Positions 1 through 32,079 of a stretch of DNA of 32,079 nucleotides are shown one piece after another. The notes under the pieces are model-generated. The model saw only the letters and a program-made list of their open reading frames with translations. It searched no databases and had not been told where the DNA came from. The DNA lies in IMG/VR virus record IMGVR_UViG_3300045988_103181, positions 1 through 32,079 of that record; one strand, 5' to 3'. The position numbers were made by a program, and so were the translations under genes. The stretch comes from a virus. The first letter of the stretch is position 1, and each line of letters opens with the position of its first letter.

Positions 1-1200
1 GAAACTTATTTCGGTTCTATAACCGGTTGGAGTTTAGAGACATTAAAAGGTAATATCTTAGAGCCTTTAAAAAAGTTTCTAGATGATATGAAATTAGAAA
101 AAGGAAGAGATTATATATTAAGGTGGCAGACTGATGAAAAGTATCTAGAAATATACAACATTAGATACTATTTCTTTGGTTTTAATAATGTACTTGCATT
201 TAATAAGATATTAGGTAAGCCTTTAATATTTGAATGGATAGATGAAAGTGCCAGAATATACTCACAGGATAATTTAAGAGAGCCATTTAATGAATTCCCT
301 GGTAGACAAGTATCTTATGCAGACCATCCTTATTTAAAGACTATACATTCATTCAATGTTGAGGGTGGGGAAAATCATCCATACAAAATTGACTACATAG
401 ATAAGAAGCCTTATGCTAAGCATTATTCTTTTTTCCCTTATGACAACCCTAAGATAAAAACAGAAGAAGCAATGCGAAAGGTATTAGAAATGTTTCCACC
501 TGGAAATCTAAGAGAACAAAAAATATTTAATAAATGGATACTTGCTACTGGCAGAGTATTCAATACTATAAACACTATAGATAGTCTTGATAATTATGCT
601 TTTAGAGAAATAGGGATAGGAATAGACTATGGTTCAGTCCATGCGACAGCATTTGTACCTATTGCTCTTGCTTATGATAAAATAAATAAGAAATGGGTAT
701 TAATAAGATTAGAGTATTACTACCATAATGCTGAAGAAGAACAAGATAACCCTACAACCGAATATTTTAGTAAGCAATTAAGACTATTCTTATTGTATCT
801 AAAAAGTGAATATGGGCAAGTGCCTATTACTACCATGGTATTAGATAGTGCCGCCGCTCACTTCCATAATAGATTAATTGCTGATAATATATCACATACA
901 TTAATCAATAAAAGCATGGATAATGTAGTTGAGGGAGTTCAATATATGCAATCTTTGTTTTATAAAGGATATCTGCTTATATATAAACAAAAAGCAATTA
1001 AGCATATAACTGATAGTGGCGAATTAATTTATAGTGGTAAAGATGATGGATTGCTTGAATTAGAAAGTTATAGATATGACTTAAAAGCAAGCACTAAAAG
1101 TGGTAAAGAAGCCTATGTAAAAGAGTTTGATGACCATATAGATGCTTTAAGGTATATCATAATTGAATTTAAAGAAACCGATAGAGCACCAGTAGTATAA
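1..1200 (+). CDS. terL: terminase large subunit, C-terminal continuation (gene starts at 31848 and wraps across the circular junction; 1-55 duplicates 32025-32079)
   Basis: Frame 1 from base 1 reads without a stop into the 88..1200 ORF. The N-terminal piece at the window end carries the Walker A motif GSTQSGKT. Size and layout fit a PBSX-type large terminase, about 458 aa in total. Confidence 0.85.
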   Translation, partial: ETYFGSITGWSLETLKGNILEPLKKFLDDMKLEKGRDYILRWQTDEKYLEIYNIRYYFFGFNNVLAFNKILGKPLIFEWIDESARIYSQDNLREPFNEFPGRQVSYADHPYLKTIHSFNVEGGENHPYKIDYIDKKPYAKHYSFFPYDNPKIKTEEAMRKVLEMFPPGNLREQKIFNKWILATGRVFNTINTIDSLDNYAFREIGIGIDYGSVHATAFVPIALAYDKINKKWVLIRLEYYYHNAEEEQDNPTTEYFSKQLRLFLLYLKSEYGQVPITTMVLDSAAAHFHNRLIADNISHTLINKSMDNVVEGVQYMQSLFYKGYLLIYKQKAIKHITDSGELIYSGKDDGLLELESYRYDLKASTKSGKEAYVKEFDDHIDALRYIIIEFKETDRAPVV

Positions 1201-1214
1201 AAGGAGTTGAATAT

Positions 1215-1736
1215 ATGGAAATGCAAGAAATTTGGAAAGATATCAAAAATTATGAAGGATTATATCAAGTCAGCAATTATGGGAAAGTAAAAAGTTTACC
1301 AAGAAAAGGAACACAAGCAAAAGAAGAAAGAATATTAAAAGTCAGTTATACTTATAATGGCTATGAAAGAGTTAATTTGTGTAAGAACAATAAAAATAAA
1401 CGATATTTAGTTCATAGATTAGTTGCGGAAACATTTATTCTAAATCCTAATGAATATCCTCAGATAAATCATATTGATGAAAACAAGCAAAATAATAAAG
1501 TTAGTAATTTAGAATGGTGTACTCGTTCTTATAACATTAATTATGGTAATAGAAATAATTGTTTGAATAAAGAAGTGTGGCAATATGATTTAAAAGGGAA
1601 ATTAATAAAAAAATGGAAAAGTACAATGGAAATACAAAGAAATTTAGGATTTAAAAATCAAAATATAAGTTCTGCGTGTAGAGGAACATACCATAAAGCA
1701 TATAATTATATATGGAAATACAAAGGGGTTGATTAA
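1215..1736 (+). CDS. HNH homing endonuclease (NUMOD4 motif plus HNH_3 domain), free-standing
   Basis: N-terminus WKDIKNYEGLYQVSNYGKVKS is a NUMOD4-like motif. The central stretch NGYERVNL...YLVHRLVAETFI...INHID..K.NN..NLEW resembles an I-HmuI-like HNH_3 domain. RBS AAGGAG lies upstream. Confidence 0.8.
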   Translation: MEMQEIWKDIKNYEGLYQVSNYGKVKSLPRKGTQAKEERILKVSYTYNGYERVNLCKNNKNKRYLVHRLVAETFILNPNEYPQINHIDENKQNNKVSNLEWCTRSYNINYGNRNNCLNKEVWQYDLKGKLIKKWKSTMEIQRNLGFKNQNISSACRGTYHKAYNYIWKYKGVD

Positions 1737-9124: not shown

Positions 9125-9438
9125 AAAATTAATGTCTGCTTAATTAGTGATAATTAAGTAAGTGTATGTGAACCTTATCAAGGGTGTGAGATTAAAATAT
9201 AAGTAGGAAATGACTTGTTGAGATAATCTTGCTAACTGGGGAAGCCTAAGTCCAAAAGATATGGTTATCCAGTGCCAAGCCTAGAAATAGGAAGGTCAAA
9301 CGACTATGAGTTCGTTACTCAGTACAATATCTATTGATACGATATTGGAAGTGCATACTATCTCAAATGAGATAAAGATATAGTCTAATCCCACTTTTAA
9401 ATAAGTGTTAAAGTGCTAGGAAACTAGGGGTGTAAATG
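9125..9438 (+). ncRNA. group I self-splicing intron (ORF-less, 314 nt) interrupting the tape measure gene
   Basis: R-like element TCAAACGACTATGA at 9296-9309 and S element AAGATATAGTCT at 9375-9386, with P7 pairing GACTA/TAGTC. The upstream exon ends in U and the intron ends in G. Joining the exons restores ATG (M) and the conserved TMP motif. Confidence 0.8.
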
Positions 9439-10651
9439 GTTAGATAATTTGAAACTTGGTTATGGGGGAACAAAAACAGAAATGGAAAGATTACTTGCTG
9501 ATGCTGAAAAGATATCAGGAGTACATTATGACATTTCTAATTTAAATGATGTATTTAATGCTATTCATGTAATTCAAGAAGAATTAGATGTAACAGGAAC
9601 GACAGCAAAAGAAGCCTCTACTACTATAAGTGGTTCAATAAATAGTGCTAAGTCAGCATTTAGTAATTTCCTAAGTGGTGCAGGTGGAATTGAAGAAGTA
9701 ATAAGTACCTTTACTACTGCTGGAACAAATATATCAAATGCGATAGTAAAAATGGCACCTCAAATAATAACTGGTTTAACTACTTTATTAAATAATCTAG
9801 TACCTTTAATTAGCCCTTTACTTCAAGCGATATTACCAGCATTGATACAAGGAACTTCAACATTAATAATGGGGCTAGTTCAAGCATTGCCTGGTATTAT
9901 TCAAATATTAATGGGTATGTTGCCTACTATAATTCAAGAATTGGCAAATATGCTACCAGTTATACTTACTTCATTAATTCAAGGGTTAGTTATGATTATT
10001 CAAGAATTGGCTAATCAATTACCTATATTGATACCAGTTATAATAGATGCTATTCTTAGCACTATACCTATATTAATTGATAATTTACCTTTATTTATAG
10101 ATGCTGGTTTTAAATTACTAGGTGGTTTAATTTCTGGTATATTAAATGCTCTTCCAATATTGCTAGCCAGAGCAGGAGAAATCATTGTTGATTTAGTTGA
10201 ATATTTCAAAGGAATGCCTAAAATGATGTGGGATTGTGGTAAAAATTTAATACAAGGTCTTTGGAATGGTATTAAGTCTGCTAAAGATTGGGTACTTGAC
10301 AAGATAGCAGGTATAGGTAATTCAATAATGAAAAAAATCAAAGGAATATTTGGAGTACATAGCCCATCAACAGAGTTTGCATGGGTTGGTAAGATGAATA
10401 TGCTAGGTTTAGAAAAAGGTATGGAAGACATGAAAGGGCAAGTTAATTCAACAGTCGGAGGAATGTTTGATGATATGTTTAGTTTATCACCTAGCCTATA
10501 TGGAAGTTCAAGTACCAATTTAAGCCCACAAGTTAATGTAGTAGTAAATAATAATATGGAGCAAGACCCATTAGGACAAATGGTTAATAATATTAAGACA
10601 TTTAGCGGTGGCTCTAAAAATGACTATAATTATGGAATGGGAGGAGCATAA
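9439..10651 (+). CDS. tape measure protein, exon 2
   Basis: Begins (M)LDNLKLGYGGTKTEMERLLADAEKISGVHYDISNLNDVFNAIHVIQ, then a hydrophobic repeat-rich C-terminus typical of TMPs. There is no ATG or RBS of its own, because the track start is a TTG. Confidence 0.75.
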
Positions 10652-16105: not shown

Positions 16106-16418
16106 AGATATTAAGATAATGCTTAAAATCTATAAAACAAAAGAAAGAGATTGGCTAGGCTATAAGATATATAGAAATACTCCATTAACAAGACATCATA
16201 TATTTAAAAGGGTATATGGTGGTGCAAACGATATATCTAATTATGCTTTATTAATAGAAAAATCTCATGAGGACTTGCATAGAATTGAAAAAATAGATTT
16301 ACAAGCATATAACGAATTAAATAATTTATTCAGAGAATTAAATGAAAGTATGCAACCTCCAAACGAAGAATATTACCAAAATGTAAGTAAAATATTAAAG
16401 AGAGTTAAAAAAAATTAA
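16098..16418 (+). CDS. small HNH-like nuclease domain protein (putative)
   Basis: 106 aa. TRHHIFKRVYGGANDISNYALLIEKSHEDLH has HNH-like spacing of His and Asn residues. Confidence 0.35.
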   Translation: MNKDIKIMLKIYKTKERDWLGYKIYRNTPLTRHHIFKRVYGGANDISNYALLIEKSHEDLHRIEKIDLQAYNELNNLFRELNESMQPPNEEYYQNVSKILKRVKKN

Positions 16419-16436
16419 CTCTTTTTTCTTTATTTT
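16402..16436 (+). terminator. rho-independent terminator (GAGTTAA/TTAACTC stem followed by a T-run)
   Basis: Hairpin followed by TTTTTTCTTTATTTT, read directly. It ends the late transcription unit. Confidence 0.65.
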
Positions 16437-16488
16437 ATAAGGGTTTATAAAGAAAATGTAAAAAAAATAAAAAAATTATTAAAATGTA

Positions 16489-16518
16489 TTGACAAATGTA
16501 TATACAATGTGCTATAAT
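16489..16518 (+). promoter_or_regulatory. sigma-A promoter: TTGACA, 18 bp, TGcTATAAT (early-region promoter)
   Basis: Consensus hexamers with an extended -10, read directly, ahead of a run of small early ORFs. Confidence 0.7.
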
Positions 16519-16551
16519 AATATTGTAATTAAGGAAAGGAAGAGATGAAAA

Positions 16552-16647
16552 ATGAATATGACAAAAGAACAATTTATTGAATATTTACACGCAACAAAAG
16601 GTTATACAATAGAAGAGGCTAAAGAAATGGCTGAAATTTATTATTAA
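16552..16647 (+). CDS. hypothetical 31-aa protein (small ORF not in track)
   Basis: Translates MNMTKEQFIEYLHATKGYTIEEAKEMAEIYY, with a GGAAAGGAAG RBS upstream. Confidence 0.3.
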   Translation: MNMTKEQFIEYLHATKGYTIEEAKEMAEIYY

Positions 16648-16662
16648 AAAGAAGGAACAATA

Positions 16663-29133: not shown

Positions 29134-29817
29134 ATGGAAATAGTATATAAAAAGGTAAATGATTTAATACCATACATAAACAATTCAAGAACTCATAGCG
29201 AAGAACAAATAAATCAAATAGTGGCAAGTATAAATGAGTTTGGCTTTACAGACCCACCATATAATATTGCTTATCAAGGTGTTAATGATAAAAGAACCAT
29301 TAAAAATGACAAAATGGAAGATGATGAATTTATAGATTTTCTTCAACAATCACTTATGGTATGTGATACTACTTATGTATGTTGCAGTTGGCAGTATGAA
29401 CATTTATTTAAAAAGGCTATGACTAATTTAGGAATGCCACCTAAAGCAATGATTGTATGGAATAAAGTTAATCCTGCTCAACATTTAGATAAATATTTTA
29501 AGCAACATGAAATAATATTTTATTATGGAAAGTTTGGTGGAGAAAAAACTTTAAGGGGAGATATATGGGAATGTAAAAGACAAAAAAATACAATACACCC
29601 CACTATGAAACCTCTTGAATTAATAGGAATGGCTTTAGAAGATAATCCAAATAAAAAGATAGTGTATGATGGATTTGGAGGTAGTGGTTCGACATTAATT
29701 GCTTGTGAACAATTAAATAGAAATTGTTATATGATGGAACTTGACCCTAAATATATCGATGTAATAATAAAACGATGGGAAGAATTTACTGGTAAAAAGG
29801 CAATTAAGTTAAATTAA
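29134..29817 (+). CDS. DNA methyltransferase, N6_N4_Mtase family (beta class: motif IV DPPY upstream of motif I FGGSGST), with ParB-like N-terminal motif
   Basis: DPPYN near residue 40 and FGGSGS near residue 185. The N-terminal 40 aa (VNDLIPYINNSRTHSEEQINQIVASINEFGF) resemble a ParB N-terminal box. Confidence 0.7.
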   Translation: MEIVYKKVNDLIPYINNSRTHSEEQINQIVASINEFGFTDPPYNIAYQGVNDKRTIKNDKMEDDEFIDFLQQSLMVCDTTYVCCSWQYEHLFKKAMTNLGMPPKAMIVWNKVNPAQHLDKYFKQHEIIFYYGKFGGEKTLRGDIWECKRQKNTIHPTMKPLELIGMALEDNPNKKIVYDGFGGSGSTLIACEQLNRNCYMMELDPKYIDVIIKRWEEFTGKKAIKLN

Positions 29818-29830
29818 AGGAAGTGATATT

Positions 29831-30217
29831 ATGGTAAAAGGAGATACACCAGCACAAGATAAAATTGATAAGAAACAATTTGAAAATTTATGTGGGCTTC
29901 AATGTACTTTATTAGAAATATGTGATTTCTTTGATGTTGAAGATGACACCTTAAATAGTTGGTGCAAGAAAACTTATGGAACTACATTTTCGGAAGTATT
30001 CAAGATAAAAAGAGGCAAAGGGCAAATATCACTTCGTAGAACTCAATGGAAATTAGCTGAAAAAAATCCTACAATGGCAATATTTTTAGGTAAACAATAT
30101 CTAGGACAAACTGATAAAGTTGAAACAACTGGAGAAATAAAAACTACTCCAACAATAAAATTAGAAGTAGTAGATAATAGTAAATTGGAGAGTGTGTTAT
30201 ATGATAATAAAGAATAA
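29831..30217 (+). CDS. terS: terminase small subunit (HTH type)
   Basis: LCGLQCTLLEICDFFDVEDDTLNSWCKKTYGTTFSEVF...GKGQISLRRTQWKLAEKNPTMAIFLGKQYLGQTDK matches, from memory, the conserved pattern of a Firmicutes phage terS family. RBS AAGGAAG. Confidence 0.6.
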   Translation: MVKGDTPAQDKIDKKQFENLCGLQCTLLEICDFFDVEDDTLNSWCKKTYGTTFSEVFKIKRGKGQISLRRTQWKLAEKNPTMAIFLGKQYLGQTDKVETTGEIKTTPTIKLEVVDNSKLESVLYDNKE

Positions 30218-30443
30218 TAAAAAATGTAATATCAAAATAAATGATAAAAATATAGAGCCTTGCAAATATTGTAATGATGAGCCAAAAATTATAAGACCAG
30301 AAAACTTTTTTAATAATCATTTAAATTTTCAAATATTTAATAGATATATATGTTTAATTGATTATAAATATAAGATTGATGAAAAATTTGAAATAAATTA
30401 TTGTCCTATGTGTGGGAGGAAGTTAAATGATAATAAAGAATAA
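30192..30443 (+). CDS. small zinc-ribbon protein (CKYC...CPMC)
   Basis: 83-aa ORF with CxxC...CxxC spacing. Confidence 0.35.
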   Translation: MCYMIIKNNKKCNIKINDKNIEPCKYCNDEPKIIRPENFFNNHLNFQIFNRYICLIDYKYKIDEKFEINYCPMCGRKLNDNKE

Positions 30444-30768
30444 ATACCACAACAAAAAAGTTACCTATAAAGGAATAAAGTTTGATAGTAAAAAAGAAAT
30501 GCAGAGATATAAAGACCTTGAATTATTAGAGAGTACTGATTATATATGTAATCTAGAACTGCAAAAAAAGTTCTTACTTCAAGAAGGATACACAAATGCT
30601 AAAGGTAAAAAAATAAGACCTATTTACTACATGGCAGACTTTTACTACTATGATTATATTGATAATAAATGGGTGGTAGAAGACACCAAAGGAGTTAGAA
30701 CAGAAGTTTATAAATTAAAGAAGAAATTATTTGAATATAAATATAATTTGACAATAGATGAATTATAA
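30427..30768 (+). CDS. DUF1064-family phage protein
   Basis: YHNKKVTYKGIKFDSKKEMQRYKDLELLE...LELQKKFLL...IRPIYYMADFYYYD...VVEDTKGVRTEVYKLKKKLF matches the DUF1064 pattern as I recall it. Confidence 0.55.
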   Translation: MIIKNKYHNKKVTYKGIKFDSKKEMQRYKDLELLESTDYICNLELQKKFLLQEGYTNAKGKKIRPIYYMADFYYYDYIDNKWVVEDTKGVRTEVYKLKKKLFEYKYNLTIDEL

Positions 30769-30769
30769 A

Positions 30770-31375
30770 AATCTGGGGGCTACTCTGGGAGACCTTATGA
30801 GTAGATAATAGGCTGTCAACCTAAAATTGAATGGTGGTTCGAGCCCACCCACTTGCTAAAGACATAATAATTAAGTATAATTTGACACATTTGAAAGATT
30901 ATTATTGTTGATAGTGTATGTGAAGTGTATTTGGATAACATACCCCCGCCATAAATGAATTATAATATTATGATATAATTAAATCGTGGGAAGCATACGC
31001 ACCATAAGAGTATGCAGGATAACTAGGAGTGAGGTGGGCTAGGTTATCAATTATTAATAAACAAAAGGATAATTTATAGGTAGTATACTGATGATGTATG
31101 CCCACTAATTTAATTAGGAGGACTTAATCGCTTATAAACGACTAGTTATATCATCAGTATAGTACTTATAAGTATAAAAGACTTAAAGAACCGATGCCTG
31201 ACTATGGTTTAGGGTGTCAGTAAACATTTATAAGTACTACTAAACCAAACCCCTTTATAAGTACTGCTATTAAGCAGTACACTGATAATATGCAAGTGTA
31301 GGTTAGGTTCGCCAATGCGGTACTATATTTCTAACAGGCTAACTACTTTAGAAAACTAGACATATTATTAGTGTA
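30770..31375. other. 606-bp ORF-free structured non-coding region (candidate cos/pac site and/or structured RNA)
   Basis: Stops in all six frames across a region of an otherwise gene-dense genome. It contains a GC-rich T-arm-like hairpin GGTGGTTCGAGCCCACC, a perfect 9-bp hairpin AGTACTGCT-ATTA-AGCAGTACT, direct repeats TTTATAAGTACT x2, and a long-range inverted repeat ATACTGATGAT/ATCATCAGTAT. Confidence 0.5.
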
Positions 31376-31414
31376 GTGTTTAATAACACTGGAAAGAAAA
31401 AGGAGGTGTCAGAA

Positions 31415-31657
31415 ATGGCAAAAAAAAGTAACACTGGAAAGAAAAAGGTTGATGTTATTAGTTTAGATAATAAGCCGGTTAATCCACAAGTTCAAGAGGA
31501 AAAAGTAGAAGTACCTACTAAGTTTGTTAAGGCTATGCCTAACATTCCGAAAACAGCGGAAAGTAAAATCAAATTAAATAATGGAAGAGTATATAAAGAC
31601 TTAGGCAATGGCTATGGTATGTATTCTGACAATGGGCAAGTATTTAGACTTAAATAG
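31415..31657 (+). CDS. hypothetical lysine-rich protein
   Basis: The track ORF is 31376..31657. The ATG at 31415 lies 7 nt after an AAGGAGGTG RBS. Confidence 0.4.
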   Translation: MAKKSNTGKKKVDVISLDNKPVNPQVQEEKVEVPTKFVKAMPNIPKTAESKIKLNNGRVYKDLGNGYGMYSDNGQVFRLK

Positions 31658-31903: not shown

Positions 31904-32079
31904 TATAATTAGCCCTAATCTAACTGAAATATATGTATTAGGAAGCACGCAGAGTGGCAAGACCTTTGATATATGTTTAGGGTGTATCTTATATGCACAA
32001 GCCCTGTATAATTATAATCCAAATGAAACTTATTTCGGTTCTATAACCGGTTGGAGTTTAGAGACATTAAAAGGTAATA
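31848..32079 (+). CDS. terL: terminase large subunit, N-terminal part (continues at base 1 across the circular junction)
   Basis: Translates METSLNLTLSKKQSQLLNDIISPNLTEIYVLGSTQSGKTFDICLGCILYAQALYNYNPNETYFGS..., with Walker A GSTQSGKT. A GGGAG RBS lies 7 nt upstream, and the frame is continuous with 1..1200. Confidence 0.85.
   Translation, partial: METSLNLTLSKKQSQLLNDIISPNLTEIYVLGSTQSGKTFDICLGCILYAQALYNYNPNETYFGSITGWSLETLKGN
32025..32079. repeat. 55-bp terminal direct repeat identical to bases 1-55 (assembly overlap of a circular molecule)
   Basis: Exact 55/55 identity read directly. Unique genome length is 32,024 bp. Confidence 0.9.

Follow-up and report, generated by a model that had tools for sequence, protein, structure and literature searches.

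Portable structured-RNA modules, including candidate RNA-processing hairpin cassettes, in the non-coding stretch between terS and terL of a phage genome

The window analysed in this study, the whole 32,079-nucleotide stretch of IMG/VR virus record IMGVR_UViG_3300045988_103181, carries a long non-coding island between the genes on its terS side and the gene string that leads to terL. This island was found to be a mosaic of exchangeable parts, and we hold with moderate confidence that it is a sense-strand, co-transcribed string of portable structured-RNA modules in which two modules, here named B and E, serve as processing cassettes. By their predicted structure, both belong to a widespread family of long hairpins, termed clamp-hairpin cassettes below, although B lacks the upstream flank hairpin (H1) and the canonical form of the downstream one (H2). 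The family matches no Rfam family and no description that was found in the literature, and by analogy it is best likened to the intergenic processing hairpins of phages. The coordinates of the modules and of the neighbouring genes are collected in Table 1.

The original prediction for this DNA had described a gene-free, highly structured region that might be a packaging site, a remnant of a transfer RNA (tRNA) gene or a novel structured RNA. The gene-free character stood: a run of 607 bp (30769-31375) is the longest on the plus strand without an open reading frame (ORF) of at least 40 amino acids, the next longest being 305 bp, and just three ORFs of 32-45 amino acids lie inside it on the minus strand. 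The true non-coding span reaches 31414, because the downstream gene has a Shine-Dalgarno (SD) sequence, AGGAGG, at 31401-06 and an ATG at 31415; the GTG at 31376 is an unlikely start for this gene. The structured character was likewise borne out by a whole-region RNA fold of -164 kcal/mol (z = -3.8) on the plus strand and -140 kcal/mol (z = -3.4) on the minus strand. By module, the fold z-scores against shuffled sequences were -6.3 for B, -4.2 for E, -2.7 for C, -1.0 for X and -0.9 for A. The shift in composition that had been noted proved modest: the G+C content rises from 0.16-0.30 immediately upstream to 0.30-0.34, and the AT skew drops. The statement that gaps elsewhere stay below 150 bp was wrong, since gaps of 305, 244, 190 and 179 bp are present. 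The two largest ORF-free gaps after the island on the plus strand lie at 9144-9448 (305 bp) and 16419-16662 (244 bp), and weak hairpin matches at 16397-16453 are probably terminators 3' of the lysis genes.

The modular nature of the island was read from its relatives. A search with the DUF1064 protein encoded upstream retrieved 80 IMG/VR loci, and the mosaic set comprised ten relatives with DUF1064 and downstream 80-amino-acid proteins more than 90% identical, the terminase subunits standing outside this comparison. In these ten relatives, the intergenic region measures 322-727 bp and is assembled from differing subsets of modules: module A is kept in some and replaced in others, the interior of module B is of two kinds, additional hairpins appear in the relatives L001, L002 and L009, and the part constant in all of them is the last ~150 bp, that is, module E. 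The junctions fall at recurrent boundary motifs, TTATAGGTAG(Y)A, GTRCTTATAA and TTATAAGYACT, which in the window are confined to the region 30769-31414. Furthermore, other phages carry the same modules elsewhere: L123 has them upstream of terS, L102 has them downstream of a likely minor-head gene, and at 35 other loci they likewise stand downstream of the minor-head gene. Since near-identical relatives carry differing mixtures of modules, the region is neither a conserved cos or pac site nor a neutral spacer. Judged by these relatives, the mosaic rules out a conserved DNA signal across the whole region as well as neutral drift, and the comparison with relatives that the original prediction had proposed as a check thus went against both of these readings. 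The proposal of a novel structured RNA was supported, and it can now be made more specific, namely sense-strand hairpin cassettes of a widespread family.

The family was collected with the pattern TAGGTAGYA-N60-120-TRGTRCTTATAA, which matched 88 + 56 IMG/VR stretches and 50 stretches of a genome collection. About 23 of the genome-collection matches were genuine and ~27 of the 50 were chance matches without the helix, as were ~10 of the viral matches. The set of distinct members with at least 18 of 24 arm pairs numbers 130. The ~23 genuine members outside the viral set all lie on short contigs of gut or rumen metagenome-assembled genomes (MAGs) labelled as uncultured Bacilli, Tenericutes, Acholeplasmatales, Erysipelotrichaceae and Clostridia. 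The members fold as a single long hairpin, with an outer helix of 23-25 bp in 79 of 121, and share one geometry, a 25-position helix of ~10 pairs, an invariant GxG mismatch and 15 pairs, followed by the enclosed cargo; the stem consensus is UUAUAGGUAGCAUAGAG. Among 66 diverse arm pairs, 96.1% of the cells were paired against 75.1% in shuffles (none of 500 shuffles reached as high), and 336 cells showed double changes against 107. The covariation score was 0.596 against 0.187, slid controls were paired at no more than 52%, and pairing ended sharply past position 28. Moreover, the pair beside the GxG mismatch switches between C-G and U-A (111:17), with two exceptions.

Several features indicate the strand on which these hairpins act. 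Within the long helix, G.U pairs outnumber A.C pairs by 388 to 16. Neighbouring ORFs are co-oriented with the hairpin in 915 cases and opposite in 98. Of 114 members, 35 are followed within 250 nt (23 of them within 90 nt) by a terminator-like hairpin with a U tract, and only five have one upstream. The covariation, the excess of G.U over A.C, the co-orientation with genes and the downstream terminators all point to hairpins that act as sense-strand RNA. Members lie in long non-coding islands, where the median distance is 150 nt from the preceding stop codon and 200 nt to the next ORF, and tandem arrays of 2-4 are common, with units of 90-150 nt spaced by 30-45 nt. Their neighbours are head and packaging genes: at 35 loci the hairpin stands directly downstream of the minor head protein gene, and other loci lie near terL, terS, portal, scaffold, major head, HNH, resolvase and methylase genes. 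When the window proteins and 73 representatives of the neighbour clusters were scanned against PHROG and Pfam, the families listed (in the batch scans, the 25 commonest) were confined to head, packaging, nuclease and methylase functions; among these representatives, no gene for a reverse transcriptase, Ro60, RtcB, transposase or recombinase stands out.

A further property of the family is a pair of alternative hairpins built into the flanks. Each core is complementary to the sequence outside it, the 5' core to that upstream and the 3' core to that downstream. Flank helices of at least 8 bp were found upstream in 70% and downstream in 46% of members, compared with 5% and 3% for shuffled flanks. 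Their G.U to A.C ratios were 168:35 upstream and 191:30 downstream, and the partner bases in the flanks follow the Y/R polymorphism of the core (G-C 100, A-U 11, G.U 3). The order in a unit is H1, distal stem, cargo, distal stem and H2, and the inner strands of H1 and H2 are the same nucleotides as the lower half of the long helix, so that the pairings are alternatives. When 24-nt flanks were included, the long helix came out as the more stable fold in 93% of members (median difference 3.6 kcal/mol), and therefore H1 and H2 are latent structures. The canonical H1 stem has ACCU paired with AGGU (for example L118 3690-3712 and L093 1156-1173), which the H1 of module E lacks; these two sequences are reportedly preferred by the Mini-III ribonuclease (RNase) of Bacillus. 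Identity as intrinsic terminators, which are G+C-rich hairpins with a U tract behind them, was rejected, because the family hairpins are followed by A-rich sequence, the terminators of the 35 loci mentioned above being separate elements downstream; on the plus strand of the window, no intrinsic terminator was detected between 30000 and 32079.

In the window, module E has the complete architecture, with both H1 and H2 and the same geometry as the canonical members around a core of different sequence. RNAalifold on 11 homologues predicted its long helix independently, with four compensatory pairs, and in L249 the E cargo is held in the canonical TAGGTAGTA...TAGTACTTA core. The H1 of this module is the stem that had been reported as a perfect one of 9 bp; the stem is real but has 8 bp, GTACTGCT at 31261-68 pairing with AGCAGTAC at 31273-80, and the ninth pair would be A.A. 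Module B is a canonical cassette with a 48-nt cargo (31099-31146), the invariant mismatch G31083 x G31162 and 15 distal pairs. The unrelated phage L123 has an identical B cargo at 988-1079, upstream of its terS, and there the base of the helix shows compensatory changes. The cargo holds an SD-like AGGAGG at 31116-21. Moreover, GCTTATAAA at 31132-31140 is an internal copy of the end motif of the 3' arm, which could allow a shorter alternative helix. The 5' arm of module C is the 3' arm of B (TAGTACTTATAAG), so that C competes with helix B; effectively, C is the downstream flank hairpin of B with an expanded loop. Other elements named in the original prediction are present at corrected positions: the long-range inverted repeat at 31085-95 (ATACTGATGAT) and 31150-60 (ATCATCAGTAT), the direct repeats TTTATAAGTACT at the places listed in Table 1 with a variant at 31165-75, and the string resembling an intron R element (AAACGACTAG) at 31136-45 and not at ~31127. 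The resemblance of the latter to an intron core had no support from Rfam.

Module A is portable in its own right. Copies occur in L001, L006, L083 and L085 and, at ~95% identity, in the unrelated context of L102 (2427-2597), where the module follows two family hairpins downstream of a 409-amino-acid ORF, likely a minor-head gene, and is itself followed by an intrinsic terminator. The T-arm-like GGTGG-TTCGAGC-CCACC followed by CACTTGC had been described correctly. The Rfam tRNA model (RF00005) scored 15.7 bits at 30801-30850 against a gathering score of 29. GGGGG at 30775-79 can pair with CCCCC at 30943-47. The module has no acceptor stem, and its 5' sequence does not pair with CACTTGC. A permuted or split tRNA was also considered, CACTTGC at 30850-56 being the reverse complement of GCAAGTG at 31293, and was rejected, since the latter varies without compensation (GGAAGTG, GTAAGTG) and persists in relatives without module A. 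Directly after the T arm, the putative promoter TTGCTA-17-TATAAT matches a sigma-70-like site at 10 of 12 positions and is kept in every copy of module A; shuffled sequences yield no fewer promoter-like sites. In L102, this putative promoter would give an RNA of ~100 nt ending at the intrinsic terminator (L102 ~2616-2640).

Table 1. Features of the island and of the genes around it (positions in the window).
Feature	Position	Strand	Remark
Whole non-coding RNA island	30769..31414	+	between DUF1064 gene and 80-amino-acid ORF; terS upstream, terL from 31848
Module A	30769..30970	+	portable; contains tRNA-like piece; overall fold not better than shuffles
Module A, hairpin	30780-30804	+	
Module A, anticodon-arm-like TAGG-CTGTCAA-CCTA	30809-30823	+	
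Module A, T-arm-like element	30833-30849	+	
Sigma-70-like promoter match	30853..30881	+	in module A; putative
Module X	30971..31071	+	local insert, two short hairpins; common to L137 only
Module B	31072..31173	+	canonical clamp-hairpin cassette; 5' arm 31072-31098, 3' arm 31147-31173
Module C	31160..31239	+	hairpin sharing an arm with B
Boundary motif TTTATAAGTACT, two direct copies	31227-38, 31254-65	+	spacer D between; motifs mark module junctions
Module E	31261..31390	+	core-diverged cassette; found in every relative
Module E, H1	31261-31280	+	
Module E, long helix	31268-31292 with 31361-31385	+	mismatch G31277 x G31376, exactly 15 distal pairs
Module E, cargo	31293-31360	+	
Module E, H2	31375-31390	+	11 nt before SD; then SD, ATG
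N6/N4 methylase	29134-29817	+	PHROG/Pfam scans
terS-like protein	29831-30217	+	PHROG/Pfam scans
Zinc-ribbon ORF	30192-30443	+	
DUF1064 / Holliday-junction-resolvase-like protein	30427-30768	+	PHROG/Pfam scans
80-amino-acid ORF	SD AGGAGG 31401-06, ATG 31415	+	heads string of small ORFs and terL
78-amino-acid ORF		+	between 80-amino-acid ORF and terL
terL, 459 amino acids	31848-32079 + 56-1200	+	split over contig ends
HNH endonuclease	1215-1736	+	then portal, minor head protein

The cargos of the family are of 10-100 nt (median 55) and of several kinds. Complete, co-oriented tRNAs (Glu, Arg and Trp twice) were identified with ARAGORN and Rfam inside four hairpins, T-loops occur in ~14 further cargos, some without an acceptor stem or an anticodon arm, and phage tRNA genes lie within 1.5 kb at ~20 loci. 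In L088 (2837-2944), the acceptor stem of the tRNA-Glu is the top of the long helix. In other cases, such as L089 (88-170) and L096 (273-355, 24.8 bits with the Rfam tRNA model), D-loop and T-arm elements are present and the anticodon arm is absent; these cargos look like mimics of the tRNA elbow on a long stem. Cargos among L001, L160, L165, L167, L168 and L144 show pyrimidine tracts (CUUUUCUUUUC, UUAUUCUUUUCUAA), which resemble anti-SD sequences or complement purine-rich leaders such as 31393-31406. These tracts and the SD-like AGGAGG in B may hint at what the cargos do.

In the processing reading that we favour, the island would be an insertion that separates the genes on the terS side from the terL gene string, and the long helix would be the ground state and the signal for a double-strand-specific RNase. 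Cleavage would release the cargo with the upper stem as a small stable RNA, and the freed flanks would refold into H1 and H2, the former as a 3'-terminal hairpin on the upstream messenger RNA (mRNA) and the latter as a 5'-terminal hairpin on the downstream mRNA, which here would begin with H2 followed by the SD, the small ORFs and terL. Phages would exchange the modules through recombination at the boundary sequences that these have in common. A helix of more than two turns, an invariant mismatch whose distance from the cargo is fixed, and latent capping hairpins fit a processing signal of this type, and the predicted helix, with 24 bp, one mismatch, covariation and a G.U bias on the gene strand, reaches the length of about two turns or more that a site of RNase III type calls for. 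Of this account, the folded structures with their covariation, the strand, the fixed geometry, the exchange of modules and the tRNA cargos are observed here; the cutting, the RNase responsible, the refolding and the tasks of the cargos are inferred. Tentatively, and with appreciably less confidence, we further suggest that the hairpins form a distinct class of portable "self-sealing" RNA excision cassettes, in which a ruler-like helix (the GxG mismatch 15 bp below the cargo) would enable a host double-strand RNase to excise the cargos from phage late mRNAs, the flanks would re-cap both fragments, and the units would be traded at their conserved arms. In such cassettes, the cargos would include tRNAs, acceptor-less tRNA mimics and other folds.

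Some observations weigh against the processing reading. Positions 7-15 of the helix and their partners were fixed by the search pattern, so that the conservation of the proximal core is partly circular, which module E and one-sided matches in tandem arrays soften without removing. The specificity of RNase III is not predictable from sequence. Approximately two-thirds of the members have no terminator nearby and lie far from start codons, so that one role need not hold for all of them. For modules A and X, stability did not exceed that of shuffled sequences. In the window, module B has lost its upstream H1 strand at the junction with module X and has H2 replaced by module C, which leaves the resealing design incomplete in this copy. 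In addition, a covariance model of the arms alone (with a GAAA loop) was unusable for family discovery, as it misaligned the window copy to the internal GCUUAUAAA at 16.8 bits, misled by the internal arm-end motif in the B cargo.

The same structures could instead work in cis. As a leader or bistable switch, H1, the long helix and H2 would behave like the attenuator segments 1:2, 2:3 and 3:4 and tune the stability or translation of the terL gene string without release of a small RNA. Three mutually exclusive, covarying helices are in keeping with such a switch, as are the constancy of module E in all relatives, its end just before the SD and the family hairpin of L118 that abuts an SD and ATG. 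This reading is nevertheless unlikely, because members generally lie far from the next ORF and well past the previous stop, at the median distances given above, many stand just before terminators at the 3' ends of transcripts, tandem arrays occur, the cargos are unrelated and include complete tRNAs, and the long helix is strongly favoured rather than balanced with its alternative. Another possibility is that the island consists of mobile or recombination cassettes at the DNA level, with the palindromic boundaries (TACTACCT-TAT-AGGTAGTA, AGTACTTATAAGTACT) as sites for a nuclease or recombinase, or as inverted repeats like those of miniature inverted-repeat transposable elements (MITEs), and the RNA folds as a by-product. 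The presence and absence of modules in near-identical phages with junctions at boundary motifs, the recurrence of one module in unrelated phage contexts and the frequent HNH and resolvase-like neighbours would suit this explanation. It is improbable all the same, given that all three helices show the excess of G.U over A.C, which is not expected for double-stranded protein sites, that genes are co-oriented at 9:1 and terminators are asymmetric, that no target-site duplication is visible, that the motifs are restricted to one region of the genome, and that no transposase or integrase was detected. Recombination of DNA at the arms may coexist with a role as RNA, as the means by which the cassettes spread.

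The packaging explanation of the original prediction, in which the repeats and hairpins would be binding sites of the small terminase subunit with a packaging cleavage region, draws on the position between terS and terL and on the repeated motifs, and a DNA signal might in principle coincide in part with the conserved module E. We regard it as very improbable. Just ~150 bp is conserved among phages with near-identical terminase-side proteins, substitutions in the conserved part keep the RNA pairing through G.U intermediates, family members occur at non-packaging positions in other phages, and terL contains the 55-bp repeat found at the contig ends. The supposed terminase-binding repeats are bases and flanks of RNA helices with G.U far in excess of A.C. 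We give least credence to a degenerate tRNA gene, an attP core or neutral recombination debris, to which the anticodon-arm-like and T-arm-like hairpins of module A, the CACTTGC behind them and the shuffle-like folding of A and X would be congenial. The tRNA-like piece exists, yet it is weak by its score and lacks an acceptor stem, neither an integrase nor a lysogeny module was detected by the PHROG and Pfam scans of the window proteins, the genes are all on the same strand, and ARAGORN, a check that had been proposed, found no tRNA in the window. Moreover, the uncompensated variation of GCAAGTG and its persistence where module A is missing, the conservation of module A in an unrelated context and the clear structural selection on modules B and E are contrary to such an origin.

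Comparison with known systems placed the cassettes closest to hairpins processed by RNase III, such as the R-sites of T7, the mRNA sites of the Bacillus phage SP82 and the stems that flank ribosomal RNAs (rRNAs) in their precursors. These are likewise sequence-related intergenic hairpins repeated within phage operons, with a helix of at least two turns and an internal irregularity; in rRNA precursors the flanking helix encloses a functional RNA, and processed ends in hairpins stabilise the mRNA, as proposed here for the cassettes. The cassettes differ in their fixed geometry of 10 + GxG + 15, their interchangeable cargos including tRNAs, their built-in alternative flank hairpins and their occurrence in many unrelated uncultured phages, and cleavage of them is a prediction. 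The Firmicutes phage phi29 has a structured packaging RNA (pRNA), which resembles the cassettes in the pairing of its two ends as a long helix and in its tie to the head and packaging module. Unlike this RNA, the cassettes are multiple, mosaic and dispensable, their phages use terS and terL and not a phi29-type motor, and the Rfam pRNA model gave no match. CRISPR arrays and the attC sites of integrons also place palindromic boundary elements between variable inserts, and attC shares a conserved stem base, an extrahelical base, a variable tip and strand specificity; however, no cas or intI genes and no GTTRRRY boxes are found here, and the inserts of the cassettes are structured and irregular in length. 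A MITE or transposon was rejected, as the arms are inverted repeats with flanks that are complementary to the arms and not direct repeats, and the motifs occur in one genome region only.

The CBASS-activating bacteriophage RNA (cabRNA) of staphylococcal phages, where CBASS is the cyclic-oligonucleotide-based anti-phage signalling system, is ~400 nt long, hairpin-rich, sensitive to RNase III, located at the terS-terL boundary of Firmicutes phages and not conserved in sequence between phages (PMC10686824). It overlaps coding sequence and is defined by its activation of CBASS cyclases (PMC10686824). The island shares its location and hairpin-rich character; unlike cabRNA, it is non-coding, and it has no match to it in sequence or architecture. 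YrlA RNAs, which are also found in phages, carry the Ro60-binding motif GNCGAAN0-1G in their terminal stem (PMC4201824). The cassettes resemble them in the long stem from both ends and, in a subset of cargos, in a tRNA-like domain with D-loop and T-loop elements. Identity with Y RNA or YrlA was rejected, because the stem consensus lacks the motif and Rfam gave no match, and no TROVE/Ro60 gene was found in the neighbourhoods covered by the protein scans described above. ROOL, GOLLD, ribozyme clusters, a group I intron and pRNA were likewise without Rfam support. The search of the window with the Rfam 15 covariance models, which the original prediction had suggested, gave no match at the gathering score and chance-level matches only in E-value mode, and in 20 + 11 related loci Rfam 15 found tRNAs only. 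In INPHARED, queried with the region and a canonical family member, no cultured phage was found to carry the element. The literature search found no description of the hairpin cassette; the catalogue of Fremin et al. (PMC10690425) may hold it unnamed.

The window is a complete circular or circularly permuted phage genome of ~32,024 bp, as concluded from an exact 55-bp direct repeat at its termini (1-55 and 32025-32079); this repeat lies inside terL and resembles the assembly overlap of such a genome. The G+C content is ~28%, and the plus strand carries all genes. Immediately 3' of terL stands a free-standing endonuclease gene of NUMOD4-HNH-NUMOD1 type (1215-1736), and a terL-region protein of one relative (L137 3519-5120) has a weak intein-splicing match; selfish elements seem to cluster in the packaging module. 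Two GTDB contigs, CAAHEL010000050.1 (L248) and USFF01000011.1 (L238), are whole-phage contigs nearly identical to relatives of the window, and their MAG labels, 'Bacilli bacterium HGM10818' and 'uncultured Tenericutes UMGS1658', tentatively indicate the host clade.

In conclusion, the presence of a long gap near terminase genes is no ground for assuming a cos or pac site, and with the island the terS-terL boundary has, next to cabRNA, a second type of structured RNA. If the processing reading is correct, it would define a searchable architecture by which phages of uncultured gut and rumen Bacilli-like hosts place small RNAs, tRNAs and tRNA mimics among them, within structural-gene operons while sparing the mRNA. 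Roughly 130 intergenic gaps that carry no annotation would become a family whose cleavage sites can be tested, and synthetic biology would gain a natural design for RNA excision cassettes.

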